A stretch of 64,000 nt of DNA from a virus (lineage: Duplodnaviria > Caudoviricetes): the IMG/VR virus record IMGVR_UViG_2806310979_000001, positions 1-64,000 of that record. One strand, given 5' to 3'. Below, one piece after another: positions 999 through 62,855 of this stretch. Below the pieces are notes generated by a model. The model was given only the letters and a program-made list of their open reading frames with translations, made no database searches and was not told the origin of the DNA. How positions within the stretch are numbered: position 1 is the stretch's first letter; every line of letters begins with the position of its first letter. The position numbers and the translations under genes were made by a program.

Positions 999-2073
999 GT
1001 TAATGGATTTATTCGCAGGTGTTGGAGGATTATCACTTGGATTTGAAAAAATGGGCTTTGATATTGTATTTGCAAATGAATTTGATGAAGGGATAGCAAA
1101 TGCTTATAAAATAAATCATCCCAATACGAATGTACTAGTAGCAGATATAACAAAGATAAATTTTGATGAGGTATTTGATAAATATGTAGGTAGGATTGAT
1201 ATTATAGTAGGCGGTCCTCCTTGCCAAGGATTTTCGCAAAAAGGGCAAAGGAAAACGATACATGATGAGAGAAACTTTTTATTTAAATATTATGTTAAAG
1301 CGGTTGAAAAAGTAAGACCTAAATATTTTGTTATGGAAAATGTTCCAAATTTATTAACCGCTGAACATGGTTATTTTAAGAATGAAATAATAGAATTGTT
1401 CAATAAACTTGGTTATGAAATAAAAACAGGTGTTTTGGATGCTGCTGATTATGGTGTGCCGCAAAATAGGAGAAGAGCAATTATTATAGGGAAAAACAGA
1501 GGTGAGGCACCCGATTTGCCAGAACCATTAAAACAGAAAGTGACAATATGGGATGCTATTAGTGACTTGGCATATCTTGAATCAGGAGAAGGTTCAGAAA
1601 TACAAAAATATAAAAATCCAGCGGAAAGTTTGTATCAAAAAGAAATGAGAAAAAATAGTAAAGAGTTATATAATCACATTGCAACAAAACATTCAAAAGT
1701 AGCATTAGAAAGACTTGCCTTGATTCCGCCAAATTGTGGGAAAGAAGTTTTGCCAAAAGAGCATTTAACAAAATCAATATATAGTGGGACTTGGACAAGA
1801 ATGGTAAAAGACGAGGTGTCGGTAACAATTACTACGAGATTCGATACACCTTCTTCTGGAAAGTTTACGCATCCTTATTTGAATAGGGCTATAACGGTAC
1901 GTGAAGCAGCGAGAATACAATCTTTTCCAGATGATTTTCATTTTATTGGTACAAAAACGTCTCAGATGAAACAAGTTGGAAATGCTGTTCCACCTAATCT
2001 TGCCAAAGCTATAGCAGAAGTTATTTTGAATGATATGCGGAAGGAGGTATCATTAAATGATAAGACCGAGTGA
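988..2073 (+). CDS. DNA (cytosine-5) methyltransferase
   Basis: DLFAGVGG, GGPPCQGFS, ENV, PQNRRR, REAARIQSFPD, QVGNAVPP; ATG 988 follows GGAGG. Confidence 0.95.
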   Translation: MKPKLMDLFAGVGGLSLGFEKMGFDIVFANEFDEGIANAYKINHPNTNVLVADITKINFDEVFDKYVGRIDIIVGGPPCQGFSQKGQRKTIHDERNFLFKYYVKAVEKVRPKYFVMENVPNLLTAEHGYFKNEIIELFNKLGYEIKTGVLDAADYGVPQNRRRAIIIGKNRGEAPDLPEPLKQKVTIWDAISDLAYLESGEGSEIQKYKNPAESLYQKEMRKNSKELYNHIATKHSKVALERLALIPPNCGKEVLPKEHLTKSIYSGTWTRMVKDEVSVTITTRFDTPSSGKFTHPYLNRAITVREAARIQSFPDDFHFIGTKTSQMKQVGNAVPPNLAKAIAEVILNDMRKEVSLNDKTE

Positions 2074-46187: not shown

Positions 46188-47684
46188 ATGCAAATTGAAG
46201 TCAGAAAAGCTGATATGGGAAAAGAGAAAAAACGTTTAAAAGTCTGTGCATATGCGAGAGTATCCACGGAAGCATCTGAGCAAGAAAATTCATTGGAAAA
46301 TCAAGTGTCTCATTATACAGAGATGATTCAGTCCAATCCAGCTTATGAGTTCGCAGGTGTTTATGCAGATTTTGGAATTTCCGGTTTTAAGGAAAGCCGC
46401 CCTCAGTTTCAGAAAATGATGCAGGATGCGAAAAATGGAAAGATTGATTTGATTATTACAAAATCTGTATCACGGTTTGCCAGAAATACCGCAATCGTTC
46501 TGAAGGCTTCCAGAGAGCTGAAGGAACGAAATGTCGGTATTTTTTTTGAACTACAAAACATCAATACGCTTACGGAAGCGGGGGAATTGCTGCTTACCAT
46601 ATTGGCAGCATTTGCACAAGCAGAAAGTGAATCTGCAAGTGAGAGTTCCAAGATGGCTTATTTACACCGCATTGAGAACGGAGAAGTCGTAGCCTATTTG
46701 GAAAGATCTTATGGATATGAAAAAGATGAAAATGGAGAATATAGGGCAAAAGAACCAGAAGCGTCCGTTATCAGGGAAATTTATGATTTGGTAATTCAGG
46801 GCGTGAACTGCACGAACATTGCAAGAGTATTGAATGCAAGAAATATTCAGACCGTTCAGGGGGCAGAATGGACAGCGAGTACCGTTTTCCGCATTGTGGA
46901 AAATGAAATTTACAAAGGTGATGTTCTTATGCAGAAAACTTTTATAGATGGGAAAAGACACCAAGTGCAGAATCGCGGCGAAAAAGCCATGTACTATGCA
47001 AAAGACAATCATCCGCCGATTGTATCGGAAAAAATATGGGAAAAAGCACAGCGGAAGCTGGAAGACATGAGGGCAGAAAGAGCCGAACACTCTGTGATTC
47101 AGGAATTCACGGAAGAAAATTATCCTTACATGAATCATATTTTTTGTGCAAAATGCGGATGGCCTTTGAAGCCACGGGTGTACAGTCATAGGCATCGGCT
47201 TTCTTGGGATTGCTCCGGACAGAAGAGAGGGACAAAAAAATTCTGTACAGGCATTCACGTTTTGGATAATGATTTACGGAAAATGAAGATTGAAGGAAAC
47301 AGATATTTTTCAGAAACCGTAGATAAGTATGGAGAGGTACATTTAAAGCATGTAGGTGAGAGGACATGGAAGAATAAGCATAAAAAGAAAAAATTCAATC
47401 ACAAAGATTTATATCCAGAATTAAATGAGGAAAATTATCCGTACTATAGACGATTGTATTGTGCAAGATGCGGAAGCAGGCTTGGACGGTATATTTCACA
47501 TGGAACAGTAAGATGGATATGTTCGAGCTATAAAAGAAAGGGGCAGACAAAATGTCCGGGAGTCCGTATTCCAGATGAAATTATAAAGGGATGGAATCTG
47601 CCTGATGGCAAAATATATATTATGGGAAAGGAAGATAAAAATGGCGAGAAGCATTACAGTTATACCAGCGAGTCAGCCTTATAG
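46188..47684 (+). CDS. large serine recombinase 1 (duplicated Zn-ribbon)
   Basis: YARVST, DFGISG, KSVSRFARN; two EENYPY...CAxCG...C repeats. Confidence 0.93.
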   Translation: MQIEVRKADMGKEKKRLKVCAYARVSTEASEQENSLENQVSHYTEMIQSNPAYEFAGVYADFGISGFKESRPQFQKMMQDAKNGKIDLIITKSVSRFARNTAIVLKASRELKERNVGIFFELQNINTLTEAGELLLTILAAFAQAESESASESSKMAYLHRIENGEVVAYLERSYGYEKDENGEYRAKEPEASVIREIYDLVIQGVNCTNIARVLNARNIQTVQGAEWTASTVFRIVENEIYKGDVLMQKTFIDGKRHQVQNRGEKAMYYAKDNHPPIVSEKIWEKAQRKLEDMRAERAEHSVIQEFTEENYPYMNHIFCAKCGWPLKPRVYSHRHRLSWDCSGQKRGTKKFCTGIHVLDNDLRKMKIEGNRYFSETVDKYGEVHLKHVGERTWKNKHKKKKFNHKDLYPELNEENYPYYRRLYCARCGSRLGRYISHGTVRWICSSYKRKGQTKCPGVRIPDEIIKGWNLPDGKIYIMGKEDKNGEKHYSYTSESAL

Positions 47685-49038
47685 AGTGGGTGGCAGGAGT
47701 CAGCAGAAAACGAGAAACCTTCAGGTAGCGGCATATTGCAGGGTTTCTACAGATCAGGAAGAACAGTTGAACAGTTTTGAAAATCAAGTCGAGTATTACA
47801 CAAAATATATTCAGGAAAATCCATTATATCAGATGGCAGGCATTTATGCAGATGAGGGAATTTCAGGCACAAATACCAAAAAGCGTGAGGAATTTAAACG
47901 TATGATTCGTGACTGTGAAGAAGGGAAGATTGACTTAGTCATTACAAAGTCCATATCAAGATTTGCCCGTAACACGCAGGATTGTTTGGAATATAGCAGA
48001 AGGTTAAAAAATCTTGGAATCGGAATATTTTTTGAAAAAGAGCATATCAACACTTTAGATGCATCAGGAGAATTATTGTTTACTATATTGTCTTCGCTGG
48101 CTCAGGACGAATCAAGAAATATTTCGGAGAACTGCAAATGGGGCATACGAAGTAAGTTTAAAAAGGGAATTCCGCAGGTGGACTGTACGAAATTTCTCGG
48201 ATATGATAAAGGTGAGGATGGGAAGCTGATTGTAAATCAGGAACAGGCAAAAATAGTGAAGCGAATTTATCGGGAGTTTTTGGATGGCTATAATCCGGCT
48301 GCTATTGCGAAAATGCTTATGGAGGATCATATCAAGACTGGTACAGGCAGGGAAGAATGGAGAAGTGCATCTGTAAAGGCTATTTTAAAAAATGAAAAAT
48401 ATATGGGTGATGCCCTTTTGCAAAAAACTTATACAGCAGATTTCCTTACCAAGAAAGTAAAAAAGAATCATGGGGAAGTGGAGCAGTTTTATGTAAAAGA
48501 GAGCCACGAAGCAATCATTCCAAAAGAACAATGGGAAGCGGTACAACTTGAATTGGAAAGAAGGGATTCCTACATGCAGGAATTGGGATTGACTTTCTAT
48601 GGATATGGCTCGGAGGTCAACCCATTTTCTTGCAGGGTAGTCTGTGGAAAGTGTGGTGCAGTTTGTGGGAAGAAAAGTTGGAAAAGCAGGGGAGTAGAGT
48701 TTTGGCAATGTAATAACAGAAGTAAAAATCATGGAGTGAAAGGATGTGCCAGTGAGAATCTCCCGCATGAAAACCTGCTTAAGGGGTTTATCACGGCGTG
48801 GAACCAGATTGTTGCGGAAAGAGAACAATATCTTCCAAAATGGGAGAAAAAGAAGAAGGAAGGAAATCCGTTAGAAAAACTTCGTGCAGAACAAATGATA
48901 GAATTGACGTTGCAACCGCCTCTTACAAAGATGTTACCAGAACTTGGACAGATGGTTTTGGAAAGGGTAATTGTACAGGGGAAAGAAATAATGGTGATTC
49001 GCTTTTTGGATGGTACGGAGATTAAGGTAAGGATATAG
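47641..49038 (+). CDS. large serine recombinase 2
   Basis: YCRVST, DEGISG, KSISRFARN, CGKCG. Confidence 0.95.
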   Translation: MARSITVIPASQPYRVGGRSQQKTRNLQVAAYCRVSTDQEEQLNSFENQVEYYTKYIQENPLYQMAGIYADEGISGTNTKKREEFKRMIRDCEEGKIDLVITKSISRFARNTQDCLEYSRRLKNLGIGIFFEKEHINTLDASGELLFTILSSLAQDESRNISENCKWGIRSKFKKGIPQVDCTKFLGYDKGEDGKLIVNQEQAKIVKRIYREFLDGYNPAAIAKMLMEDHIKTGTGREEWRSASVKAILKNEKYMGDALLQKTYTADFLTKKVKKNHGEVEQFYVKESHEAIIPKEQWEAVQLELERRDSYMQELGLTFYGYGSEVNPFSCRVVCGKCGAVCGKKSWKSRGVEFWQCNNRSKNHGVKGCASENLPHENLLKGFITAWNQIVAEREQYLPKWEKKKKEGNPLEKLRAEQMIELTLQPPLTKMLPELGQMVLERVIVQGKEIMVIRFLDGTEIKVRI

Positions 49039-49047
49039 GCTCTGAGG

Positions 49048-49977
49048 TTATTCCAACAGAGCCATATTTTCTTCGGTTTCTTCCGTAAAAATAGCGAGCT
49101 GTCCATCAACCATATCATCTTCGAATACATCGGTATTTTCTGATGTTTCAATATCCGCCTTTTTTCCTCGTGGAGTTTTATGAGCGTAGAGGGTATCCAT
49201 GCGGAGAGGGTGTTTGGATTTTTTGTTATAGGCAATCAGAATCGCTTCTGCAAATCCAAGAGATCCTCCGCGGCGTTCTCTTGCCTGACGTCCAATTTCA
49301 CGGACAGAAACACGGCCAACCCTTTCTTTGAAAGTGGTATCACTCATTTTATCTCCGAAAGCATTATCTAACCTTGCGACTGCGTTCAGCATATTGGAAC
49401 TGAAGGACATAGGTGCGCCTTCCCAAGTGGCCACGCATAAGCGGAGTACACGGTCAAGAGTATGGAAACCATATTTGTCATATATGTTTACCAATGTTGA
49501 TACCGCACAGATTCCGCCGGGGTGAGAAGAGGATGTGATAGATAAATCATAGGATTCCACTAAATCTTTGATAATCAATTCTTTTTCGCTTCCAGCCTCA
49601 ATGTTAGCCATGAAGATTTCATAAGGCAGCAGGGGCTTTACATATTTCATTTGGTTAGCAAAGATATCTGCTTCCTGAGTATAATTTAAATCATCATAGA
49701 TCATACACCAGACAGGAGTTTCACGGGAACCGGATACCAATGCCACGATTTCAATAGTATGCTGTCCATTAAACACATAATTAATGCCATTCCTACGGCT
49801 TACCTTTACAGGATTGATTTGATACAAATCGAAGTTTGCAGCCGCTTTTTCAACATGGCGCAAAGATAGGTTCCTTTGATAATTTTGGTCTGAAACAAGG
49901 TTTTTAATAGGTATCTGTTCAAAATGAACGTTTGGGACATATCTTTGTAATTCTTCAATATTTTCTTCCATAATCAT
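49048..49977 (-). CDS. ParB/Srx-superfamily (DGQHR-like, DUF6551-like) protein
   Basis: NYQRNL...NPVKVS...YVFNGQHT. Confidence 0.75.
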   Translation of the reverse strand: MIMEENIEELQRYVPNVHFEQIPIKNLVSDQNYQRNLSLRHVEKAAANFDLYQINPVKVSRRNGINYVFNGQHTIEIVALVSGSRETPVWCMIYDDLNYTQEADIFANQMKYVKPLLPYEIFMANIEAGSEKELIIKDLVESYDLSITSSSHPGGICAVSTLVNIYDKYGFHTLDRVLRLCVATWEGAPMSFSSNMLNAVARLDNAFGDKMSDTTFKERVGRVSVREIGRQARERRGGSLGFAEAILIAYNKKSKHPLRMDTLYAHKTPRGKKADIETSENTDVFEDDMVDGQLAIFTEETEENMALLE

Positions 49978-50927
49978 GCTTCCTCCAAAATCTTTGTAAT
50001 TTTATCAATTACAGTCATTAGATTACTCAGTTGTATTTTTAAACGCTTTTTTCCTTCTTTAGAAGAACGTTGGAAATCAGTCACATTCATTACCCGTTCG
50101 ATGGAGCTGCACCAAGAAGGAATTGTGAGAGAAAGACTGGAAAGCTCGGCATCGGGATCAAATTTTGGCATTTGCTTGATGACGGGTTTCGGCTCTGCGA
50201 TTTTTTCCTTTTGGGTTGGAGCAACAACTTTTCTCCATTGAAGTTCACGCTTCATATCAGGATAGCTCAGATGTTCAATGCCTTTTTCAATCATGTAATC
50301 ATATAATTTTTTGAGTTCATAATGAGGCAGTCGGGAAAGCTCAATAATATTGGCGTGAGAAATGCGAAGTTTACCGGAACGGATTCGTTCTACCATTTGG
50401 GGAGTTTTCTCGCAAATATTATCCAATGCGCGACTATATTCATTGTATTTGTACACGGAAGCAGGAGATGTGTTGCATTCAGATGCTATCTGTGTTGCGG
50501 AAATGTGTCTGCAAGGAATTTTCTTTTCTATACGATATGTATGACCGCCTTTTCCGGTGGTGGAATTTTCAGATGAAATACGGGCAGTAATCGCTTTTAC
50601 GGCATCATATTTCTTTCCAATCACATATTTACGGTTGGCTTCTGTAAGGTCTTCACGTTTAAGTTGCTGTGTGCAGATCCATGAGATTGCATCCTCCCGG
50701 CTTAAAAAGTACATGCGTTTGATACGAAATTTGACTCCTCGTTTATGACAGATTTGATATGCTTCAACTCCATCCACAATCAATCCATTCCAAGTGTAAA
50801 TTGGATCACTGTATGCGTGGGAGCTTATTTTGCGTTCCAGTGATTTATGTTCGCGATCTTCTAAAGGCTGAATGAGATTTGTAAATTCCAGATCAAGTTT
50901 AAGGGTATAGTTGTTATAGTTACTCAT
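49974..50927 (-). CDS. ParB-like protein with degenerate CTP motif plus HTH
   Basis: DPIYTWNGLIVDGVEAYQIC (usually DGHNRY), WICTQQLKREDL, IASECNTSPASV. Confidence 0.7.
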   Translation of the reverse strand: MSNYNNYTLKLDLEFTNLIQPLEDREHKSLERKISSHAYSDPIYTWNGLIVDGVEAYQICHKRGVKFRIKRMYFLSREDAISWICTQQLKREDLTEANRKYVIGKKYDAVKAITARISSENSTTGKGGHTYRIEKKIPCRHISATQIASECNTSPASVYKYNEYSRALDNICEKTPQMVERIRSGKLRISHANIIELSRLPHYELKKLYDYMIEKGIEHLSYPDMKRELQWRKVVAPTQKEKIAEPKPVIKQMPKFDPDAELSSLSLTIPSWCSSIERVMNVTDFQRSSKEGKKRLKIQLSNLMTVIDKITKILEEA

Positions 50928-51325
50928 AATGTTTGTTCACTCCATTCAGTATTCTGTTGCATAGAAGGGGACGTTTCCAACATGGAAAACTGTATAACTC
51001 CTGCTTTGGAATTAAATTGCCCATATAAGCGGAAAATATTTCCATATTCCCAACCGCAGTCTACAGTCATCATGGTTTGTAATAAATCTTTACAGTATAA
51101 TTCATAACTGTATCCTGTTTCAAAACGATATTTTCTAACTTTATGTGCGAGATAATCCCGTTTATCGCCAGCCTTTATTGCTATCATTTTGGCATTGGGA
51201 TTAATCAGTAGCTGAATATAATCAGGATCACCGAGAAGCCGTAGTGTATTACGATGAACACGAATAAGGCTCTTTTTTAAATCAATACTCAGGATGGGTT
51301 GATATAGATTTTCTCGACTCATCAT
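50924..51325 (-). CDS. hypothetical protein, distant paralogue of the LSR3 C-terminal domain
   Basis: YIQLLINPNAKMIAIK...GW...FRLYG...IQFSM aligns with neighbours. Confidence 0.75.
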   Translation of the reverse strand: MMSRENLYQPILSIDLKKSLIRVHRNTLRLLGDPDYIQLLINPNAKMIAIKAGDKRDYLAHKVRKYRFETGYSYELYCKDLLQTMMTVDCGWEYGNIFRLYGQFNSKAGVIQFSMLETSPSMQQNTEWSEQTL

Positions 51326-52067
51326 CTAGCACCTCACTTTCGTTTGGGACTGGTATCTGCTCCGGTATAGGAGACTGTGTTTTCTTTTTTTCATGGACAT
51401 CAAATACTGCATATCCATCAAAAATATTGATCTGCAGGGCATTTTGATGCTCTTCGACAGGGACTCCGAATTGATTCTGCCACTCAGAAGGATAGCTTGC
51501 AGTTCGGGATACTCTTGGCTTTTCTCCTTCTTTGGAAGTGCGCATGAATATTTCCGGGGTTGTCAGGTCAAAAATGAATAATACTTCATCGCCGGATCGG
51601 ATGAGTTTTCCTAAAAGTTTGTAACGATAGTTAGGATTCCAGTTCATCAAAGAGATAACTTTCGCAAAGAATATCCGGCAGGTGATTTGTTTTGGATTTT
51701 TCTTTTTTCCTGCTGAACACCAACGGAAAGAGTCTTTTTCTTCCTCACGGCATGGCCTTACAGCAAGTTTTTTTTCTTCTGGATTTACGAGTATCTGTAC
51801 ATATTCTACAGAAGGAAGTTTTTTTATACAGGCCATATTTACAGATACTTTGTAATTGTTAAATGTAAAGGAAGGCTCAAATGTATGGGCGAAAAATTCG
51901 CCACGGACAACTTGATATCCATCAAAGCTGAAATCCATATCTTCAATGAGATCAGATTGTCCATCTTTTCCCGGCGTGATAGTTACTGGCAGGGGATTTT
52001 GAGGTTTGCTCATATCTTCGGGAATATTTTGTGCCAGTTCCCATGTGTTTACAGGTGTGTCAGTCAT
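51282..52067 (-). CDS. hypothetical protein, paralogue of the LSR3 C-terminal domain
   Basis: GYQVVRGEFF, LAVRPC, WNPNYRYKLLG, YPSEWQNQFG shared with LSR3. Confidence 0.85.
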   Translation of the reverse strand: MTDTPVNTWELAQNIPEDMSKPQNPLPVTITPGKDGQSDLIEDMDFSFDGYQVVRGEFFAHTFEPSFTFNNYKVSVNMACIKKLPSVEYVQILVNPEEKKLAVRPCREEEKDSFRWCSAGKKKNPKQITCRIFFAKVISLMNWNPNYRYKLLGKLIRSGDEVLFIFDLTTPEIFMRTSKEGEKPRVSRTASYPSEWQNQFGVPVEEHQNALQINIFDGYAVFDVHEKKKTQSPIPEQIPVPNESEVLDDESRKSISTHPEY

Positions 52068-53928
52068 TACGATTCTCCTTTATTTCTTCCATAATTTCCA
52101 CGATTCCTTTCGTAAGATCCGCTTTGGACGTGGTATGCAGTTCTGATTCCTTATAGGGTTGTCCTTCAGAGGTGATCTGCCAATTCTTATTATTGGTAAA
52201 AGCAACCAGTTCTCGTGCGTGGGTTTGACTATAATAATTGTTTCCAAAGCTATTCATCCATTCTGCCGGATAGCCGAGGATAGTTTTAGGCGTGGAAGAA
52301 GCCTCTGCTGATTTATTAGGGGAATCTTTGTCTGTTGTTGCAGGTACTTCATTCGGAATGCGTACTTCGGTTTCTTTCATATTAAAAATCAGAACATTTT
52401 CAGATCCCTTTTGATGTGCTACTCCGAGAACACGGTATTTGCAGTTGGGATTCCAACCAAACAATTCATAAAGTGTTGGTAGGAAAGCTGCTCCATATAT
52501 ATAGCGAGGAACCAGAACGCCATTTCGCAGACGCGCCCATTGGACTTTATTTCGATTATCTTCAAGTGTGCAAGGCCGTACAGCGAGAAGATAAGAACTT
52601 GGATGTATCAGCAATTCTACGGTTTTGATTTCTCCAAATTTTCTGAGAGCCTCCGTACTAAAATTTAATTTTTCATAAGACAGAGTTGCTGATATTTTTC
52701 CGGTGGTTTCAAAAAACTGACCATGTGCGATTTCATATCCCCTTAAGTCGAAAGAACCAAGTTGTGCAGTAATGGGGATTGTATCAGAAGGTGTGCTTTC
52801 TGAATCGGATATACTTGATGAAGCGGCACGGTAATCATCTGGTTTGAAGCCGGCCCAACGGGGATTAACTGTGATGAATCCTTTTAATGCTCCATCTGGG
52901 ATTACGTGAAGTTCAGGAAGCAAGGCTTTGTTTCCATATTTAGCATTACTGATTAGTTTTTGAACCGCAATGAAATCGTCTCTTGAAATAATAGCCTCAT
53001 GATGTTCACGTTTTCTATATTGATTACGGTCTTGGTTATTTTTCCGTGACTTATGATCCAGATAATTTGGTGTCCATGTTTTACGGGCAAGAACATCGCC
53101 ACAATGTCTTTCATTTTGTAAAATTTGAAGAATAGAACCGGAAGACCATACTTCATTATTCTTTTTTGTTTTACAGCCAAGTTCCGTAAGTGTGTCAGCA
53201 ATTTCCTGACAGGTATTTCCATTTAAATACATGTAAAAAATCAGTTTTACGATTTTTGCCTCGTGTTCATTAATTTTTAATTCTCCGTTTTCGTCTTGAT
53301 CATATCCAAGCAAAGGTGGTGTCAGGAAAATTCCTCTTCTAAAACGCATCTCAATAGAGGCATTCATGATTTCACTTTTTGTATGACTCTCCTCTTGTGC
53401 AAGGGTAGACATGAAGGAAAGGATCATTTCGCTTTTGGGATCAAGGGTATTTAAATGTTCGGTTTCAAAAAATACACCGACTGGAGGGCGGAGAGAAAGA
53501 AGCTCCCGTACATAGCCGATACAGTCCACCACATTACGGGCAAATCGAGATACGCTTTTTGTGAGGATAAGGTCAATTTTTCCATCTTCGCAGTCTTGTA
53601 CCATCTGTTTGAAGGCTTCTCTATGCTGTAGAGATGTACCGGAAATTCCTTCATCGGCATATATTTTTACGAGATTCCAGTTAGGATTACGATCTACTAC
53701 GTCTTGATAATGATTTTTTTGAAGTTCATATGAGGATGTCTGCCGAGGATCGTCTGTGGAAACTCTGGCATAAACAGCTACCCTTAACATGGAAGATGTT
53801 TTGAATATATCCGGTTTGGGGAGAGCAGGAATGACATCAAGTTCATCTGGATTTATTCCTTTATATCGCTCACGAATGAGAGCTTTCTGCTGTTCGATTG
53901 TTTCAGTTCTTTCTTCATATTCTTTCAT
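52060..53928 (-). CDS. large serine recombinase 3 with unusual C-terminal domain
   Basis: YARVST, DEGISG, KSVSRFARN, recombinase domain to HEAIIS; no CxxC Zn-ribbon. Confidence 0.93.
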   Translation of the reverse strand: MKEYEERTETIEQQKALIRERYKGINPDELDVIPALPKPDIFKTSSMLRVAVYARVSTDDPRQTSSYELQKNHYQDVVDRNPNWNLVKIYADEGISGTSLQHREAFKQMVQDCEDGKIDLILTKSVSRFARNVVDCIGYVRELLSLRPPVGVFFETEHLNTLDPKSEMILSFMSTLAQEESHTKSEIMNASIEMRFRRGIFLTPPLLGYDQDENGELKINEHEAKIVKLIFYMYLNGNTCQEIADTLTELGCKTKKNNEVWSSGSILQILQNERHCGDVLARKTWTPNYLDHKSRKNNQDRNQYRKREHHEAIISRDDFIAVQKLISNAKYGNKALLPELHVIPDGALKGFITVNPRWAGFKPDDYRAASSSISDSESTPSDTIPITAQLGSFDLRGYEIAHGQFFETTGKISATLSYEKLNFSTEALRKFGEIKTVELLIHPSSYLLAVRPCTLEDNRNKVQWARLRNGVLVPRYIYGAAFLPTLYELFGWNPNCKYRVLGVAHQKGSENVLIFNMKETEVRIPNEVPATTDKDSPNKSAEASSTPKTILGYPAEWMNSFGNNYYSQTHARELVAFTNNKNWQITSEGQPYKESELHTTSKADLTKGIVEIMEEIKENRND

Positions 53929-53977
53929 AGGTCATCAATTCCTTGTATTGCGATTTATTCTCATTATAATTTTTTTG

Positions 53978-54025
53978 TGAAAAAAAGACATAAACCACCA
54001 GTTAATCAAATAACGGATGGTTTAT
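53978..54025 (-). terminator. probable terminator after XRE gene
   Basis: ATAAACCA/TGGTTTAT stem with minus-strand T run. Confidence 0.55.
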
Positions 54026-54052
54026 ATAAAGTGAAATGGATTTGTGATTCAA

Positions 54053-54442
54053 TTATAGGTCTTTTAAATTGTTATCTTTTAGAAGTATTGTTTCAATTAA
54101 AGACCAATCATTGCTCCGAAGAATATCCTTTACTGCGGAAAGAATCAGATAGATGAAGCGTTTTTCGTTTTTGGAACAGTCTGCCATAAGTAAGTCAATA
54201 TCTGTTTGATATTCTGTAGGATTGTAAAGCAGATTTCCATAGAGCAGTTCATCCAACGTAATTCCCAGTGCATTGCAGATTTTGATAAGAGATTCTAAAC
54301 TGGGTTTCCGCTTGGCATTTTCAATGTAGCTGATATAGACAGAAGATAAATTTGCCAGTTCAGCTAATTCTTCCGCAGAGATTCCTTGCTGATTTCGGGT
54401 TTCTTTGATGCGGATACCAATTAATGAATAGTTTATAGGCAT
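54053..54442 (-). CDS. XRE-family regulator
   Basis: IGIRIKETR...ELAELANLSSVYISYIE...PSLESL. Confidence 0.9.
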   Translation of the reverse strand: MPINYSLIGIRIKETRNQQGISAEELAELANLSSVYISYIENAKRKPSLESLIKICNALGITLDELLYGNLLYNPTEYQTDIDLLMADCSKNEKRFIYLILSAVKDILRSNDWSLIETILLKDNNLKDL

Positions 54443-54661
54443 GTTATCACCTCCTTTCGCCGTTTGAGCAAGTTCTATTTGGAAATCTGCTCCCGGCTTT
54501 TAAAGGTGAATTGTACAAAAGTACATACTACACTAAAGAGGAGTATAGCACATGTTAAAAATAACGAGAAGATGTCGGAATAAAGGGAATTTCGTCGATG
54601 GATTTTTATTGCGGAATTTGTCTTCAAATGGTATTATCGTAGCGAAAGGAAGGTGGAATAA

Positions 54662-55000: not shown

Positions 55001-55321
55001 TTGTGTGCAGAGGACTACATAGCTGATCGTCTTGTTGATTTATGTGAAAAGCGTGGATTGACAAAGTATCGTCTTGCTCAACTGACCGGAATGTCCCAAA
55101 CTGCAATTGGAAGCATAATATCAAAAGAGAGTATTCCGACCATACCAACTCTTGAAAAGTTATGCAGTGCCTTCGGCATTACATTAGCGCAGTTTTTTTC
55201 GAATGAGGAGAGTCATCCAAATTTGACAGAGACTCAAAGAGAAATCCTTATGATATGGGATTCGTTGGATGTTGAGGAACGGAAGGTATTCATGACAATG
55301 ATTCGTGGACTGAAGAAATAA
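55001..55321 (+). CDS. XRE-family regulator, duplicate A
   Basis: YRLAQLTGMSQTA...IPTIPTLEKLC; TTG start. Confidence 0.88.
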   Translation: MCAEDYIADRLVDLCEKRGLTKYRLAQLTGMSQTAIGSIISKESIPTIPTLEKLCSAFGITLAQFFSNEESHPNLTETQREILMIWDSLDVEERKVFMTMIRGLKK

Positions 55322-55554: not shown

Positions 55555-55878
55555 TTGCTTACAGAAGACTATGTTGCATTGAGGATTATTGAGTTGTGTG
55601 AAAAGCATAAAATTTCAAGATACCGTCTCTCTCAATTGACTGGAATGTCACAGACAGCATTGGGGAAAATTGTTTCAAAAGAAAGTATCCCAACGATTCC
55701 AACTATAGAAAAGATATGTGATGCATTTGGAATTACGCTGGCACAGTTTTTTACCAAAGACGGAATCCGCCCTGACTTATCAGCAGGTCAACTGGAACTG
55801 GTAGAAACTTGGGAGTATTTGGATGATAAAGAGAGGGAGATATTACTTACCTTCGTGCGGAGTTTACAGAAAAAGTAG
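55555..55878 (+). CDS. XRE-family regulator, duplicate B
   Basis: YRLSQLTGMSQTA...IPTIPTIEKIC; TTG start. Confidence 0.88.
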   Translation: MLTEDYVALRIIELCEKHKISRYRLSQLTGMSQTALGKIVSKESIPTIPTIEKICDAFGITLAQFFTKDGIRPDLSAGQLELVETWEYLDDKEREILLTFVRSLQKK

Positions 55879-56674: not shown

Positions 56675-56982
56675 ATTCTTTCTATATAAAAGAGTTTCTT
56701 TATAATGTGTACCGAGAGTGAGGTTAAACGGGTGTTAAGACTCTAAAGTTGGATATCCCCCTAGTGCCTGAAACCCGCATAAACTGGGCATTTGTGTCTC
56801 TACATATCGCTATAATTTACATTCTAAAACTGTGCTTAGACGAGGAAATTATTCCCCGTTGTCGTTTCCCTTATTCAAGGGGGTATTTCAAAAAATGTAT
56901 AAATTAGCAAAAGAAGCAATCATTCAGCGTAAGTCAATCTTACTGCAAAAGTCTAATAAATCAGCAAAAGGAGAAGAAGCCT

Positions 56983-57524: not shown

Positions 57525-58631
57525 ATGAAAAGATATCAATATATAGATTTATTTTGCGGTTGTGGCGGATTAAGCCTTGGATTTGAGCAAGCAGGTTTTA
57601 TTCCTAGGGCTGGAATTGATTTTAAAGAGTCAGCAATAAATACTTACAGGAAACATTTTAAGAATGCAAAAGCGATTTGCGTAGATATTTCATCAATGGA
57701 TGAGGAAAGAATAAAGAAAGAATTAGGGGATTTAAGTAAAATCGATGTTATAATCGGGGGACCGCCTTGTCAGGGGTTTTCAAATGCAAATAAAAATTTT
57801 GTAGAAGAGGATGATCCAAGGAATAAATTATTTTTTGAATTTATGAAATTTGTTGACTTGGCACAACCTAGTGTTGTGGTCATAGAAAATGTACCGCAAA
57901 TTATTACAAAGAATAATGGCTATGCAAAGAAACGAATTACAGAAATTTTTGAAGAGCGTAAGTATAATGTAATCAATGCTATACTAGATGCGTCAGATTA
58001 TGGAGTTCCACAAAAAAGAATGAGGAATTTCTTTATCATAACAAAAGGAGTTTCTTTTGATGTTAGTAGAATAGTAAAAAATCATGAAAAAATAACGGTA
58101 AAAGAAGCGATTGGCGAGTTATATGAGTTCGAAAATCAAGATAAGAATTCGGAGGTTGTTTTAAAATATCCTCCTGTAACAGAATATCAACGCTACTTAC
58201 GGGCGAGTGATGGAATAGTAAAAAATCATGATATCCATTACCCAGCAGAAATTCAACAAAAACGTATTTCATATGTACCACAAGGGGGAAATTGGAAAGA
58301 CGTACCAGAAGAATTGTGGGAGACAAAGCGAACACAAAAGACAGGTAGAAAAAATCGGCATTCATCAGCATACAAAAGATTAAAGGAAGATGATGTATCA
58401 GTTACAATTGATGCTGGAAATCAGCATAGTAACTATTATCATCCAATTTATAATAGAATACCTACAGTGCGGGAAGCAGCAAGAATACAATCTTTTCCGG
58501 ATGATTTTGTTTTCGAGGGAACAATGACAGAGCAATATTTGCAAGTTGGTAATGCGGTACCACCGCTTTTGGCAAAATGTATTGCGATGGCGATAAAGGA
58601 GCATTTACAGAATGAAGAAGAAAATAATTGA
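57525..58631 (+). CDS. DNA (cytosine-5) methyltransferase M1
   Basis: DLFCGCGG, GGPPCQGFS, ENV, QVGNAVPP. Confidence 0.95.
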   Translation: MKRYQYIDLFCGCGGLSLGFEQAGFIPRAGIDFKESAINTYRKHFKNAKAICVDISSMDEERIKKELGDLSKIDVIIGGPPCQGFSNANKNFVEEDDPRNKLFFEFMKFVDLAQPSVVVIENVPQIITKNNGYAKKRITEIFEERKYNVINAILDASDYGVPQKRMRNFFIITKGVSFDVSRIVKNHEKITVKEAIGELYEFENQDKNSEVVLKYPPVTEYQRYLRASDGIVKNHDIHYPAEIQQKRISYVPQGGNWKDVPEELWETKRTQKTGRKNRHSSAYKRLKEDDVSVTIDAGNQHSNYYHPIYNRIPTVREAARIQSFPDDFVFEGTMTEQYLQVGNAVPPLLAKCIAMAIKEHLQNEEENN

Positions 58632-59649
58632 TTTATTTTGTGGTTGTGGAGGACTGAGTTTAGGCTTTGAACAAGCTGGCTTTGAAGTAGCATATGCAAT
58701 CGATATGTGGGATAAAGCCATAATGACTTATAATCATAATCATAAAAATAAGGTGGCAGAATGTAAAGATATACACGAACTGACAGATGAATATTTACAA
58801 CAATTAAATGCGAATGAGAAAATTGTTGGGGTTATTGGAGGACCGCCTTGTCAAGGGTTTAGTAAGGTCGGCACAAGAGATATAAATGATCCTAGAAATC
58901 ATTTATATTTAGAATATTGCAGAGTTGTAAAAACAATATCACCAGATTTTTTTGTGTTAGAAAATGTAGGAGGATTATTAACACTCTGCAAAGGCATGTT
59001 TAAAAATGATATTATTAATAGATTTAGTGAACTTGGATATAATGTTGTTTCCCAGGAAGTCTGCGCAGCAGATTATGGCGTTCCACAAAATAGACATCGA
59101 GTGTTTTTTGTCGGAATGAAAAAAGGAAATTTTTCCTTTCCAGAGAAAAAACACAAAATAATCACGAGTAAAGATGCTATTAGCGATTTACTGCCATTAA
59201 CGATGGAAGACGGTCTTGACGAAATGCATGGGTATGCATGCGCACCACAGAATGCATATCAGAAAAAGATGCGTGGAAATCAAAATATTGTTGCAAATCA
59301 TCAGATTACAGTTCATACACAAAAGACTATTGATATTATTAGTATGGTGCCAGACGGAGGAACAATTTATGATTTGCCAGATGAGTATTGGAATGTAAGA
59401 AAATACAGAAAAGGATTTGAAAGAATGCCAAGTTTGAAACCATGCCATACTGTAGATACTGGGCATAGAAATTATTTCCATTATTCGGAAAATCGCATTC
59501 CAACAGCTCGTGAAAATGCTAGATTACAATCATTTCCAGATAATTATGTCTTTTTAGGGACTAAAACAGATCAATATAAGGAGATTGGAAATGCAGTTCC
59601 ACCAATGTTGGCGTATAATATAGCCAAGGCAATTAGAGAACAGTTATAG
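58612..59649 (+). CDS. DNA (cytosine-5) methyltransferase M2
   Basis: DLFCGCGG, GGPPCQGFS, ENV, EIGNAVPP. Confidence 0.95.
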   Translation: MKKKIIDLFCGCGGLSLGFEQAGFEVAYAIDMWDKAIMTYNHNHKNKVAECKDIHELTDEYLQQLNANEKIVGVIGGPPCQGFSKVGTRDINDPRNHLYLEYCRVVKTISPDFFVLENVGGLLTLCKGMFKNDIINRFSELGYNVVSQEVCAADYGVPQNRHRVFFVGMKKGNFSFPEKKHKIITSKDAISDLLPLTMEDGLDEMHGYACAPQNAYQKKMRGNQNIVANHQITVHTQKTIDIISMVPDGGTIYDLPDEYWNVRKYRKGFERMPSLKPCHTVDTGHRNYFHYSENRIPTARENARLQSFPDNYVFLGTKTDQYKEIGNAVPPMLAYNIAKAIREQL

Positions 59650-59659
59650 GAGGTGCGAT

Positions 59660-60442
59660 ATGGATATATTGGTCTCTAGTCCGGGATCGCCCGGAACCAA
59701 TTTTACTGAAAATGTAAAGGAGCAAATATTACTTATTAGTGATGAACTAGACAAAAATGATGATTTTGCTTCTTTGATGGAGTTAAAAAAGCATTTAGAA
59801 AACTGTGGATTGAATCAAAATTATGTACGAAATATTTTGCCTTTTTTACAGAATTGCGGAATAGTAAAATATGATAATATAGATACATTCAAGAATAGTG
59901 AAATAGTGACCAATATAGGTCGAGCATACGTTGACGTCTTAAAGAGCATAAAGATTGCAAGGAACGAAGAAAAAAGCGAGATTAGAGATGACATTTTGGA
60001 AATGCTTGATAAAATTCAGCAGACGATATATTTTCAATGTCTTACGATTATGATGAAAAATCCTGATTGCAATTATGGTATTGATTTTTTGGATGTGTTA
60101 AGATTTGTTGATATGTATGGTCATATTGATTTAAACGAATATATGCTTATCTTGTACGAAAGAGAAAAAAATGGACATGATTATCTGCGTGATCTACAAG
60201 ATGTAGTTAAAAAATATCGAAATAAAGAAATTGAAATTCATGTAAAGACAAAAACCAAAAATGCTATGGAAGGCGATGGGAAATCTAAGAGCGTAAATTC
60301 ATTTCCATATGTCACAGGAAATTTCTGTAAATCAGGTATCATGAAAAAAATAGATGGAAAGTTTTATTTTGAGGAAAATAGAATTAAGGAAATTGAAAAT
60401 ACAATTGAGGAGGTGGCAAAATGTCGGAATTTAGTGAGGTAG
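59660..60442 (+). CDS. hypothetical, probable stand-alone specificity subunit of the McrBC-like enzyme
   Basis: between MTases and an McrB lacking an N-terminal domain; wHTH-like LPFLQNCGIV...TNIG. Confidence 0.6.
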   Translation: MDILVSSPGSPGTNFTENVKEQILLISDELDKNDDFASLMELKKHLENCGLNQNYVRNILPFLQNCGIVKYDNIDTFKNSEIVTNIGRAYVDVLKSIKIARNEEKSEIRDDILEMLDKIQQTIYFQCLTIMMKNPDCNYGIDFLDVLRFVDMYGHIDLNEYMLILYEREKNGHDYLRDLQDVVKKYRNKEIEIHVKTKTKNAMEGDGKSKSVNSFPYVTGNFCKSGIMKKIDGKFYFEENRIKEIENTIEEVAKCRNLVR

Positions 60443-61461
60443 CAAAAAATAGCATTGTATCCAATATTGAAGACATTAAACAAAGACTGGGATTAGAAGA
60501 TCAAGTTGCAAATGTTATGCAATCCAATAATGATGCTCAAATAAAACATAAAAATTGTATGGAAATTCAGCGGATACCGAGGTCATGTTGTATACATCCT
60601 TTGAATTTTATTATTTATGGTGCACCTGGAACTGGAAAAACATATAATACTGCAGAATATGCTCTCGCAATTATAAATAACAGAGAACCTGATTTATTAA
60701 AGAAAACAGATACTGAACGTAGAAAAATATTGTCAGAATATAAGAAGTATATACAAAAGGGACAAATCGTATTTACTACGTTTCATCAAAATTATGGATA
60801 TGAGGAGTTTATACAGGGATTACGACCAGACCCTGATAAGGATGGAATCTCTTTTAAGACTGTCGATGGAGTATTTAAAAAATTAGCAGATAAGGCCATT
60901 TTAGATAATGATAACAACTATGTAATTATTATTGATGAAATTAATCGTGCTAACATATCAAAAGTGTTTGGTGAACTTATAACATTGATAGAAGAAGACA
61001 AACGCTGGGGAGAATTGAACGAATCTTGTGCTACACTTCAATCTGGAGATGTTTTTGCCGTACCTAATAATTTATACATTGTGGGAACAATGAATTCGGC
61101 AGACAAATCTATTTCGCTTATTGATGCTGCTTTACGTCGAAGATTTTCTTTTATAGAGCAAAAACCAGATGAATCATTAATAGAGGATGATGTCCTGAAG
61201 AATGTATTTTGTGAGCTTAATACACGACTTGTATCAGAACTCGACAGTACAGATTTGCTAATAGGGCATTCATACTTTATGAATAGAAAAAAAGAGGATT
61301 TATGCAAAATTCTTAATACAAGTATAATTCCATTGTTGTATGAATACTTTTATGATAATCGGAAAAAAGTTAGCAATATTTTAGCAGAAGCAATAAAAAA
61401 CACAGATGTAGAAATAGTAGATGACAAGATAGGACGATTGAACGTTAGAAATAAAGGATAA
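60421..61461 (+). CDS. mcrB: McrB-family AAA+ GTPase (short)
   Basis: GAPGTGKT, TFHQNYGYEEF, IDEINRAN, GTMNSAD, ALRRRF. Confidence 0.92.
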   Translation: MSEFSEVAKNSIVSNIEDIKQRLGLEDQVANVMQSNNDAQIKHKNCMEIQRIPRSCCIHPLNFIIYGAPGTGKTYNTAEYALAIINNREPDLLKKTDTERRKILSEYKKYIQKGQIVFTTFHQNYGYEEFIQGLRPDPDKDGISFKTVDGVFKKLADKAILDNDNNYVIIIDEINRANISKVFGELITLIEEDKRWGELNESCATLQSGDVFAVPNNLYIVGTMNSADKSISLIDAALRRRFSFIEQKPDESLIEDDVLKNVFCELNTRLVSELDSTDLLIGHSYFMNRKKEDLCKILNTSIIPLLYEYFYDNRKKVSNILAEAIKNTDVEIVDDKIGRLNVRNKG

Positions 61462-61466
61462 ATGCT

Positions 61467-62855
61467 ATGGTAATTAATCGCTATGAAAATTCGCAGATAA
61501 AATTTGAGTCTCTTCCAATATCGTGGCAATCTCAGAATGTTTTGGATGAGTTGGCAGATTTTCTACAACAAAACTGGGAACAAAGGTCTGTGTTTTATGA
61601 AGATGGAACAATTACAAGCAAGCAGCAATTTATAGCATTTATAGGACAGCGTGGAATAAAAACAAAAAACTATATTGGGACAATTGTATTTAAAGGCGAG
61701 CAGATTAATATCTTTCCTAAAATGTTCCGGGAAGATGCAGATTACACAGAAACTGAAAATTTGACTCAAAAGCATCTTATGAAAAATCTAGTGCATTGGC
61801 TTGAGTATTGTCATAAAATTGAATATCCGTTTATTAATATTACGACTGCACTAGAAGACACGGAGGACTTAAGGGAGTTATTTATAACATTATACATAGG
61901 ATATGTCAGAAGTGCATTGGAGAGAGGTGCATACTATCAGTATGTGGAAAAAACAGAAGATTGCACAGGTATAAAAGGTAAGTTTGATATAAAGGATTAC
62001 TACATTAACAAGATTCCGAATGGGCAAATCAATCGTTTTAGGTGTTCATATTCAAAATTTGAATATGATAACAAAGTTAACAGGATTATTAAGTATACTT
62101 GCAAGCAAATAATGAATTCTACGACATCTAAAAATCAAAAGGAAATCAGAAAAATTTTAATGCGTTTAGATGAAGTAAATGATGTACCTTGTAGCCCTCA
62201 TGATTGTAATAGTATTCAATTGAGTAAAATGCATAGACACTATGATATTATATTAAGTATGAGCAAAATGTTCCTTTTAAACAGATTATCAAATTATACT
62301 GTTGATAATAATGAATCGTTTTGTTTTTTGTTTCCGACTGAACTATTATTTGAAGGCTTTATTGGTGGATTTATGCAAGAGGTACTGAGTGAATATGGAG
62401 CTAAAGTTAAATTACAACAAAGTGAGATGCATTTAATCGAGGATGTTATATATGGAGAGCGTTCATTGGGAGCTGCTTTCACGATGAGACATGATATATT
62501 GGTAGAAACTAAAAATAAAATATTTATTCTTGATACAAAATACAAACAGGTTTCAAGATTTGAAGGTAATGATGAAGAAGTAATGCGGGTTGTTAGAGAG
62601 GAACCTAAGCAGACGGATATATATCAGGTTTGTGAATATGCAAGAAAAAGAGGAATACAAGATGCATATTTGTTATATCCGATGTATCGATATGAAGATA
62701 GAGAGACAATATTCCCTGTGGGAATAAGCCCAAGCCCAAGTGGTGATATAAGGATTCATTTTATAAGAGTACCTTTTGTTTTTGAAGAAGATAGTGAAAA
62801 AATGAAAGAGCAGTTAAAAAGTATAATCTTGGATATAATAGGGATTGATGTATAG
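61467..62855 (+). CDS. mcrC: McrC-family nuclease
   Basis: NIFPK, LLFEGF, HD...ILDTKYK, DIYQVCEYA, LLYP. Confidence 0.9.
   Translation: MVINRYENSQIKFESLPISWQSQNVLDELADFLQQNWEQRSVFYEDGTITSKQQFIAFIGQRGIKTKNYIGTIVFKGEQINIFPKMFREDADYTETENLTQKHLMKNLVHWLEYCHKIEYPFINITTALEDTEDLRELFITLYIGYVRSALERGAYYQYVEKTEDCTGIKGKFDIKDYYINKIPNGQINRFRCSYSKFEYDNKVNRIIKYTCKQIMNSTTSKNQKEIRKILMRLDEVNDVPCSPHDCNSIQLSKMHRHYDIILSMSKMFLLNRLSNYTVDNNESFCFLFPTELLFEGFIGGFMQEVLSEYGAKVKLQQSEMHLIEDVIYGERSLGAAFTMRHDILVETKNKIFILDTKYKQVSRFEGNDEEVMRVVREEPKQTDIYQVCEYARKRGIQDAYLLYPMYRYEDRETIFPVGISPSPSGDIRIHFIRVPFVFEEDSEKMKEQLKSIILDIIGIDV

Follow-up and report, generated by a model that had tools for sequence, protein, structure and literature searches.

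The locus raises the question of what a third serine recombinase, LSR3, does in a temperate gut phage that already carries a classical pair of large serine recombinases, and why relatives of its own C-terminal domain and two ParB-fold proteins are tied to it. The stretch of DNA analysed, referred to as the window, comprises 64,000 nucleotides (positions 1 to 64,000 of the IMG/VR record IMGVR_UViG_2806310979_000001).

Layout of the operon and the recombinase LSR3

LSR3, p261, p133, ParB1 and a DUF6551 protein are encoded by five overlapping genes behind an XRE-type regulator (Table 1). Consecutive genes of the five overlap by 8, 44, 4 and 4 nt, and the stop codon of the DUF6551 gene is separated by 9 nt from that of the convergent LSR2 gene, as the sequence-only reading of this DNA had stated. 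The other features that it described are likewise found where it placed them, and ParA, relaxase and Rep are absent from the operon, again as claimed. The XRE gene lies 5' of LSR3 in most loci and has an XRE2-like gene divergent from it in many, while in Kineothrix-type phages it points toward the early genes; a tblastn search of the XRE/early-gene region of these phages found no ImmR/ImmA homologues. No conserved repeat pair that could serve as a candidate substrate site was found around or inside the module. The idea that a 31-nt inverted repeat (54228-54258 / 54461-54491) might act as an invertible switch around the start of XRE was dropped, because the repeat is not kept in 16 other loci.

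Table 1. Positions in the window of the module genes and of the features that flank them
Feature	Position	Strand	Basis or remark
LSR1 and LSR2, overlapping classical large serine recombinase pair, outside the module	46188-49038 (LSR2 47605-49038)	plus	Resolvase, Recombinase and Zn_ribbon_recom domains
DUF6551 protein, ParB/DGQHR-like fold	49048-49977	minus	PF20188 6e-29, phrog_1033
ParB1, ParB-fold N-domain, HTH and C-terminal helical hairpin	49974-50927	minus	AF2 model, Foldseek, VIA
p133, 133 aa, free domain copy 3, core domain only	50924-51325	minus	hhalign vs p261
p261, 261 aa, free domain copy 2	51282-52067	minus	paralogous to LSR3 tail
LSR3 C-terminal beta-rich domain, about residues 388-575, repeat copy 1	52204-52767	minus	BLASTP vs p261 1e-24
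LSR3, serine recombinase, 622 aa	52060-53928	minus	PF00239 and PF07508, no PF13408
XRE/Cro-CI-type HTH, repressor-like, heads operon	54053-54442	minus	PF01381 1e-17
Two paralogous Cro-like HTH genes	55001-55321 and 55555-55878	plus, divergent from XRE	PF01381/PF13443
Right end of prophage A	56730-56736		junction with prophage B; in other hosts with 3' part of comEC

LSR3 looks like an active serine recombinase. It contains a resolvase-type catalytic domain (6e-27) and a Recombinase domain (residues 221-327, 5e-26), and 23 LSR3 homologues all keep the serine of the YARVST motif, the downstream catalytic-domain motifs and much of residues 1-370 unchanged. Its N-terminal part is related to solved catalytic domains of large serine recombinases (3g13, 3e-37; SprA, 7.5e-13), and NCBIfam returns partial matches to CcrB and CcrC. 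That it lacks a zinc ribbon is borne out by the finding that LSR1 and LSR2 both match PF13408 in the same search in which LSR3 does not, and residues 330-622 contain two isolated cysteines only and no CxxC pair. A novel beta-rich domain stands where the zinc-ribbon/coiled-coil domain would be.

The repeated domain and the ParB-fold pair

The beta-rich domain of LSR3 is paralogous to p261 (BLASTP E 1e-24, 27% identity over 207 aa), and p261 in turn is more distantly related to p133 (pairwise 1e-4; hhalign profile-profile probability 97.1%, E 5e-11, 106 columns). With the BLASTP and profile-profile values taken together the triplication lies far beyond chance, as the sequence-only reading had supposed. 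p261 bears N- and C-terminal extensions around the domain and is among the best conserved proteins of the module, with homologues in more than 2000 90%-clusters and 1544 50%-clusters at E<=1e-3. The LSR3 tail has no family in Pfam, NCBIfam, PHROG or PADLOC, the repeated domain has no Pfam match, SpoVT/AbrB included, and the AF2 model of p261 (pLDDT 83; about 91-98 across residues 40-210) finds nothing in the PDB with Foldseek at E<=1e-3. The earlier guess of an AbrB-like fold is echoed weakly by the best VIA match of this model, MraZ (1n0e; Z 3.7, rmsd 4.3, 91 residues aligned), followed by B3 domains (Z 2.4-2.7), all of which fall below the tool's stated noise level. Matches in BFVD are uncharacterised phage proteins of 110-130 aa, and the ESM Atlas search returned the p261 family alone.

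Relatives of the module exist in split and fused forms. In phi1207.3/Tn1207.1 (orf2-orf3), phiNJ3 and NatCom_991 the recombinase is short (about 370-400 aa) and the domain is encoded by the next gene, an adjacency checked in seven phage records out of 26 matches, whereas in two Oscillospiraceae phages recombinase and domain are fused. phi1207.3 orf2 and phiNJ3 gp3 align with LSR3 residues 1-358 at about 42%, and the small gene that comes next is homologous to p133 (95.9% and 93.2%), in NatCom_991 as well. The free protein of NatCom_991 is 69.5% identical to a stretch within the LSR3-like match of NatCom_11393 and NatCom_21982. Because the domain is an adjacent separate gene in some relatives and fused in others, it is taken to work together with the recombinase; on these alignments it is a separable partner, which in the window is both fused and accompanied by two free paralogues. 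Of the multi-subunit recombination machine that had been envisaged, the conserved multi-gene recombinase module behind an XRE gene and the functional tie of the free paralogues to the recombinase therefore stand, while the setting of the target by the paralogues has lost ground, as discussed below.

The two downstream proteins, which had been taken for ParB relatives, both have the ParB fold, ParB1 according to its model and the DUF6551 protein according to Pfam and PHROG ('ParB-like partition protein'). ParB1 has no sequence-level match in Pfam or the PDB and its ParB character is seen in the fold alone: the AF2 model (pLDDT 86) matches pNOB8 ParB-N (5k5d) with a Foldseek E of 2e-5 and a VIA Z of 10.3, and KorB, Spo0J and PadC with Z of 9.4, 9.2 and 8.9, respectively. 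Its motif reads DGVEAY in the window copy and DGHNRY in many homologues, while in the DUF6551 protein GQHT, inside an NGQHT motif, is invariant. No ParA was found among the scanned ORFs of the window, a scan that covered part of the phage-body ORFs.

Carrier phages and conservation of the module

The record consists of two tandem prophages of about 56.7 kb each, approximately 70% identical, that lie in comEC and both carry a copy of the module. Positions 6006-56729 of the window are collinear with PV036436 at 95-99% identity, and prophage A is 95-99% identical to NatCom_26447, NatCom_2932, NatCom_27009 and NatCom_33527. By near-identity and collinearity with these classified genomes the prophage carrying the module can be assigned to Ca. 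Heliusvirales. Homology with L001-L004 and four phage records ends at the right end of prophage A, where the flank in PV036436 is the C-terminal part of ComEC, and in four runs contigs pass at 56729-56735 into sequence resembling comEC-like flanks. Runs labelled as RNA contain the whole prophage as 8-57-kb contigs, in which no excised (attP) joint was seen. The breaks at 5932 and 56733 were considered as the ends of a single 50.8-kb prophage, which was rejected because 5932 is a mosaic break between cargo and core and the record holds two prophages in tandem. All five genes are annotated 'hypothetical protein' in PV036436 and PV036443. A term search of the paper describing Heliusvirales found no 'recombinase', 'integrase' or 'ParB', and the portions consulted mention a 'DNA invertase' marker and unspecified integration/excision genes (de Jonge et al. 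2024, PMC11283538).

The module formed by the five overlapping genes is real and is widely conserved among temperate gut phages. Among 80 loci fetched, their order is kept in all 72 with enough flank, which answers the question of conservation raised by the earlier reading, and the ParB-fold pair always comes after the recombinase and domain genes. p261 is encoded in 244 species-representative genomes, and the lineage with the module, whose temperate phages insert into competence genes, takes in both the Ca. Heliusvirales found in gut Clostridia and the phi1207.3/phi-m46.1 group of streptococci; a plasmid collection gave a single distant match. In 20 loci the gene pair next after the module is homologous to LSR1/LSR2. 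In Kineothrix and Anaerocolumna prophages the module occupies the lysogeny-module position by the early genes and the LSR pair lies 40-53 kb away.

Role of the module and comparison with known systems

Phages that share a module and differ in their chromosomal site bear directly on whether LSR3 inserts its own element. Between S. suis phages located in comEC and in rum, the LSR3-like proteins are 98.6% identical and the small proteins 99.3%, whereas the right-end recombinase pairs are 36% and 47% identical, so that in these relatives the site differs together with the LSR pair and not with the LSR3-like gene. The modules of L037 and L038 are likewise 95.7% identical and their host flanks differ. 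The occurrence of near-identical modules at different sites weakens the idea, implied earlier, of an LSR3 integrase with a target set by the paralogues, although two cases underlie the statement that module and site do not go together, because the left arms of the S. suis phages have possibly been exchanged recently with the mef(A) region. The comparative evidence argues against LSR3 catalysing attP x attB integration of its element; chromosomal insertion of the phage is probably the work of an enzyme other than LSR3, and LSR1/LSR2 are likely to be the chromosomal integrase pair. For phi1207.3, integration has been assigned, by inference, to the right-end recombinase pair (PMC4260502).

An integration/excision role proper, possibly as an alternative system, is unlikely for the module; in it LSR3 would read att sites via the new domain in place of the zinc ribbon, p261 and p133 would be directionality factors and competence genes would be targeted. 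The phages examined of the window type, the Kineothrix type and the streptococci have a classical LSR pair, and in the window the operon is 9 nt from LSR2 and 2.3 kb from the phage end. Several placements do speak for such a system: Kineothrix-type phages have the canonical 'int...cI | cro' layout beside an att end, in Herbinix and Anaerocolumna about 85 bp lie between the end of the module and the host junction, as expected of an integrase module (in L037 and L038 past a terminator and a TTTTGC-CAT-GCAAAA dyad), L067 adjoins a truncated comEC and LSR3 alone is seen in the MAGs G005 and G007. A 19.5-kb transposon-like, non-phage island that splits a T2SSE gene also carries the module, with LSR3 as its sole serine recombinase, and was first read as evidence for an integrase role. 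This reading was then judged unsafe, because the island's junctions have an imperfect 7-10-bp core in common (attB ATTGCATTTA, attL AGTGCCTTTA, attR ATAGCATTTA) and it encodes three tyrosine recombinases; a Tn554-like mechanism accounts better for these features, and for TnpV, than does a serine crossover of 2 bp. The same island carries an MmeI-type system, and restriction-modification cargo adjoins the module in the window, Kineothrix and phi1207.3, which would suit a lysogeny-expressed defence, exclusion or anti-defence operon in which DNA that is incoming or competing, and not the element itself, would be the target of the recombinase and the ParB-fold proteins. Such an operon would also fit the co-orientation with the repressor gene and the enrichment of orphan ParB-CTPase folds in prophage regions (bioRxiv 10.1101/2025.10.10.680097). 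This role is nonetheless judged improbable, as PADLOC assigns the five proteins to no defence family save for one marginal match (0.0076), the catalytic residues are those of a conservative site-specific recombinase and invariant, and the recombinase/small-domain pair belongs to the stable core throughout the phage lineage and is not variable cargo. Least expected, and very improbable, is an autonomous nested mobile element or satellite hopping between phages and islands, which the earlier reading had also suggested. The module does occur in three contexts (beside LSR2, beside early genes and on the non-phage island), a 5.5-kb block is 95.7% identical in two phages otherwise about 70% identical, and the window and L005 have 49146-54517 alone in common. 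However, it has neither terminal repeats nor ends of its own, only 4-9 nt separate it from the neighbouring LSR2 gene in many loci, and the edges of the shared block are the XRE promoter region and the phage end, as in ordinary modular exchange. It sits at the same place in both tandem prophages, in copies whose divergence roughly matches that of the remaining genome, and in the lysogeny-module position in other members of the lineage, and is accordingly regarded as a part of the phage.

The reading preferred here, although held with a confidence that stops short of even, is that the six genes form a 'third-recombinase' accessory module that performs a secondary site-specific reaction on the element's own DNA, with chromosomal integration carried out by the LSR1/LSR2 pair. 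The domain would serve the recombinase, both in cis and in trans, by recognising DNA sites or by regulating it, and p261 and p133 may be accessory or competing subunits that bind the same sites or ones close by. The ParB-fold proteins would be nucleotide-switched DNA binders at the recombinase's site, and the module would be read together with the XRE repressor. Candidate reactions are the resolution of tandem or multimeric copies and the modulation of excision. A bolder proposal, which is rather doubtful, is a new multi-subunit class of serine recombinases in which a separable domain, fused or free depending on the phage, targets DNA or regulates the enzyme, and in which p261, p133 and the nucleotide-switched ParB-fold pair come together with LSR3 on specific DNA to settle when and where recombination occurs; if true, this would make a naturally 'split' recombinase, and exchanging the small subunit could change its specificity.

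Serine integrases are major genome-engineering tools, and it is in the zinc-ribbon/coiled-coil domain that their choice of site and of direction is generally placed. A very widespread branch of recombinases dispenses with this domain and uses one that is able to be a separate protein, and it spans the 244 species-representative genomes, human gut phages recognised as an order-level group and phi1207.3/Tn1207.1, a macrolide-resistance phage. Solving the role of LSR3 would explain why this abundant lineage of gut phages keeps three serine recombinases and ties two ParB-fold proteins to one of them, and could reveal a modular way of directing a serine recombinase. The carrier phages interrupt comEC and the module island a T2SSE gene, so that both are relevant to natural transformation in gut Clostridia.

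Among known systems, the ParB-fold pair shares the ParB N-domain fold with the orphan ParB-CTPase-fold proteins (KorB, Noc, VirB, DndB/DGQHR and phage DUF6551 fusions), as well as the absence of a ParA partner, the prophage setting and, in ParB1, an HTH. The phage DUF6551 fusions bind CTP or ATP (bioRxiv 10.1101/2025.10.10.680097). Unlike these orphans, the module has two different ParB-fold proteins in tandem that are fixed to a recombinase operon, and the arginines of the canonical nucleotide-binding motif (GERRxR / DGQHR) are missing from both window copies. As a genome, prophage A is near-identical to the Ca. Heliusvirales records. phi1207.3/Tn1207.1, and also phi-m46.1, phiNJ3 and phi-SsuHCJ31_comEC, share with it the comEC insertion and LlaJI-type restriction-modification cargo in the left arm, and phages of this type carry an overlapping pair of serine recombinases behind the lysis genes and one more close to the opposite end (PMC4260502). 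Their third recombinase ends at about 370 aa and the domain is one separate gene, in contrast to the fused LSR3, and the annotated left arms viewed contain no p261-like second copy and no ParB-fold genes. With the large serine recombinases (phiC31, Bxb1, A118, SPbeta SprA, TnpX and CcrA/B) LSR3 shares the conserved catalytic and recombinase domains. In those enzymes the zinc-ribbon/coiled-coil domain reads the outer att motifs and controls directionality via a recombination directionality factor (RDF), whereas LSR3 has in its place a domain without an assigned fold family. To our knowledge RDFs have no sequence signature in common. The accessory proteins of large serine recombinases are unrelated RDFs, while those of the module are paralogues of the LSR3 tail domain itself.

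Organisation of the module and its repeated domain

The sequence-only reading described overlapping minus-strand genes behind an XRE gene, and these are present as six genes, the XRE followed by LSR3, p261, p133, ParB1 and the DUF6551 gene, the last five overlapping by 8, 44, 4 and 4 nt in that order. The convergent LSR2, which with LSR1 forms a classical large serine recombinase pair, is as close as had been claimed, with 9 nt separating its stop codon from that of the DUF6551 gene. LSR3 has an intact catalytic core, in which Ser57 is the catalytic serine, and, as had been noted, is devoid of a zinc ribbon: it gives no zinc-ribbon Pfam match, whereas both LSR1 and LSR2 do, and its final 290 residues contain just two isolated cysteines. 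The zinc-ribbon motif of LSR1 is internally duplicated, with two Pfam stretches and a 57-nt direct repeat (72%).

Features of the window and of the comparison loci (L-numbers)
Feature	Coordinates	Strand	Length	Remark
XRE	54053-54442	minus	129 aa	first gene of the six at 49048-54442
LSR3	52060-53928	minus	622 aa	Resolvase and Recombinase Pfam domains matched
p261	51282-52067	minus		repeated domain
p133	50924-51325	minus		repeated domain
ParB1	49974-50927	minus	317 aa	
DUF6551 protein	49048-49977	minus	309 aa	PF20188 match
LSR1/LSR2	46188-49038	plus		overlapping pair
LSR1 zinc-ribbon repeats	47103-47159; 47418-47474			
Prophages A; B	1-56733; 56734-113553			source record
Restriction-modification cargo of A; B	270-5934; 57525-62855			McrBC/LlaJI-type
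Tail-fibre variation hot spot	44451-44453			
Gene broken in one genome	55940-56626		228 aa	1.34-kb insertion, L003:4333-5673
Insertion inside comEC	56730-56736; L081:50-1522; L095:18762-19436			
TTTTGC clusters	56907-56969; L067:8310-8375; L083:427-489; Kineothrix region (L039 end / L095)			
Non-phage island	L092:14009-20000 + L019:1-13465		19.5 kb	shared by Blautia luti and Anaerostipes amylophilus

The zinc ribbon is replaced by a separable domain that had been read as paralogous to p261 and, more distantly, to p133. The LSR3 tail aligns with p261 at an E value of 1e-24. The pairwise similarity of p133 is weak (1e-4), but profiles built from 26 and 21 homologues match with 97.1% probability (E 5e-11, 106 columns), which establishes the triplication of the domain. 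Pfam, NCBIfam, PHROGs and PADLOC contain no match to any of its three copies. The structure of p261 predicted from an alignment of 69 sequences is confident (pLDDT 83, about 91-98 at residues 40-210) and shows a beta-rich domain with two helices. A Foldseek search of the PDB with this model returned no match at E<=1e-3. The structure aligner VIA ranked MraZ first (Z 3.7), followed by plant B3 domains (Z 2.4-2.7), every one of these scores being under the noise level of the tool. An AbrB-like fold, the guess of the sequence-only reading, is thus a possible one, echoed no more than weakly by MraZ. Among predicted viral structures the matches are uncharacterised phage proteins of 110-130 aa.

The two remaining genes had been assigned to the ParB superfamily, and both assignments hold. 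For the DUF6551 protein there are matches to PF20188 and to a PHROG with a ParB-like annotation, and GQHT is invariant inside its NGQHT motif; phage fusions of a ParB-CTPase with DUF6551 are reported to bind CTP or ATP (preprint 10.1101/2025.10.10.680097). ParB1 yields no sequence-level match, the family profile included, and its fold is recognised from the AF2 model (pLDDT 86), which matches pNOB8 ParB-N (VIA Z 10.3, rmsd 8.2, 205 aligned), KorB (Z 9.4) and Spo0J (Z 9.2), with a Foldseek E value of 2e-5. The predicted architecture comprises a ParB N-domain, an HTH region and a C-terminal helical hairpin, and DGVEAY occupies the position of DGHNRY in many homologues. The C-terminal motif of ParB1 reads MPKYDPDAEISSLTLTIPSW. 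In its homologues the motif IKQMPKYDPDAEISSLTLTIPSWISSIxR is strongly conserved downstream of a disordered linker, and it could be a docking peptide.

Genomic contexts and prophage ends

At 90% identity the p261 family forms more than 2000 clusters, and at 50% identity 1544; it is encoded by 244 species-representative genomes, for the most part Lachnospiraceae. The operon is conserved, with LSR3, p261, p133, ParB1 and DUF6551 tightly spaced and in this order in all 72 loci with enough flank (80 were fetched; the other 8 extend past contig ends). Near-identical copies occur in Blautia, Coprococcus and Anaerostipes. The module in the window belongs to the phage genome, and three contexts are found overall. 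In the 20 loci of the window type, LSR2/LSR1 converge on the module mostly 4-350 nt past DUF6551, and up to 2.5 kb past it in three. In Kineothrix and Anaerocolumna prophages the module lies between cargo and early genes, the classical 'int-cI | cro' position, and the LSR pair is at the opposite end, 40-53 kb off; the former prophage splits comEC and the latter adjoins an apparently intact comEC. The third context is a non-phage island whose copies in Blautia luti and Anaerostipes amylophilus share 98-99% identity. Alongside the LSR3 module it encodes TnpV, DUF6262, three tyrosine recombinases, a methyltransferase and an MmeI-type enzyme. A T2SSE (comGA-like) ATPase gene is split by the island, and near-identical module-bearing copies occur in Coprococcus, Dorea and Muricoprocola loci.

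The source record is a provirus of 113.5 kb in which two Ca. Heliusvirales prophages, A and B, share 66-75% identity over collinear blocks and carry one module copy each. They lie head-to-tail (~70% nucleotide identity) and both begin with restriction-modification cargo, each different. Each phage runs from this cargo through ImmR/ImmA (in prophage A), early and replication genes, structural genes, lysin, LSR1-LSR2, the module on the reverse strand and Cro-like genes to its end; the break at 5932 is simply the border between cargo and phage core. Four Ca. Heliusvirales records match prophage A at 95-99% identity, and the paper describing this group (PMC11283538) makes no mention of the module genes. 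The tail-fibre region is a variation hot spot, with ~3.2 kb extra in PV036436 and in a 57.5-kb contig of sequencing run X1.

Four genomes and four phage records show a sharp right end at 56733, contigs from four runs exit the phage at 56729-56735 into sequence resembling the comEC-like flanks, and the 3' part of comEC is found past the prophage right end in other hosts. At position 56733 the right end of A meets the left end of B, which makes the junction a hybrid attP-like site. The insertion site lies inside comEC: the flanks in other hosts are ComEC fragments interrupted in the Competence domain, as for streptococcal phi1207.3, and among related elements some split a T2SSE (comGA-like) gene and others adjoin T2SSF. 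The phage end proximal to comEC-5' has, 20-230 nt inside it, three to four TTTTGC (GCAAAA) repeats with spacings of 18-38 nt. Clusters of this kind are rare, with 4 in 1.38 Mb of loci, and are possible binding sites for an accessory protein.

Probable partnership of recombinase and domain, and the role of LSR3

The phages of the streptococcal phi1207.3 group, which insert into comEC at a GA dinucleotide and carry LlaJI-type cargo and 'three resolvases' (PMC4260502), have the same overall architecture as prophages A and B. Orf2 of phi1207.3 (370 aa) and gp3 of phiNJ3 align with residues 1-358 of LSR3 (about 42%), and the 139-aa gene after orf2 encodes a p133 homologue (95.9%, E 6e-9), and so does, in phage record NatCom_991, the 155-aa gene next to the short recombinase (93.2%). 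This adjacency is confirmed by coordinates in 7 of the 26 phage records with the small gene. The match to the free NatCom_991 protein (69.5% identical) falls within the LSR3-like match in both NatCom_11393 and NatCom_21982, an apparent fusion. When one phage has a domain as a free protein and a close relative has it in apparently fused form, this is a classical sign of two parts that work together, and these forms are the strongest support for the proposed partnership, putatively by contact, of recombinase and domain at the core of the sequence-only reading. In two streptococcal relatives a variable cargo site directly follows the short recombinase and small gene: phiNJ3 has mef(A)/msr(D) there, and phi-SsuHCJ31_comEC has a tagatose PTS operon.

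Three observations argue that LSR3 is probably not the chromosomal integrase, a role we consider unlikely. Between S. suis phages with insertions in comEC and in rum, the LSR3-like proteins are 98.6% and the small proteins 99.3% identical, whereas the recombinase pairs at the right end share just 36% and 47%. Over 5.5 kb the module of Herbinix is 95.7% identical to that of Anaerocolumna, yet their host flanks differ and the remaining phage is about 70% identical. Finally, the island junctions, set against empty sites from four congeners, have in common an imperfect 7-10-bp core (ATTGCATTTA / AGTGCCTTTA / ATAGCATTTA), and with the three tyrosine recombinases the island resembles a Tn554-type insertion more than a 2-bp serine crossover. 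The integrase role is nonetheless kept as a rival because these observations are comparative and left-arm exchange could explain the near-identity of the S. suis proteins across sites.

Under the preferred reading of LSR3 as a recombinase with a secondary reaction, it is proposed that the repeated domain would supply DNA-site recognition or control, and that the free copies may act as accessory or competing subunits, placed on its sites or on neighbouring ones. The ParB-fold proteins would be nucleotide-switched DNA binders at the module locus, the operon being read together with the XRE gene. The substrate may be the element's own DNA, and the tandem double lysogen of the window is the type of structure on which a resolvase-like activity would act; this is the weakest step because no conserved repeat pair was found around or inside the module.

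None of the papers searched describes a zinc-ribbon-less large serine recombinase, a new domain found in fused form, in split form and in extra copies, or two fixed ParB-fold partners of a recombinase; the component parts themselves fall in known superfamilies.
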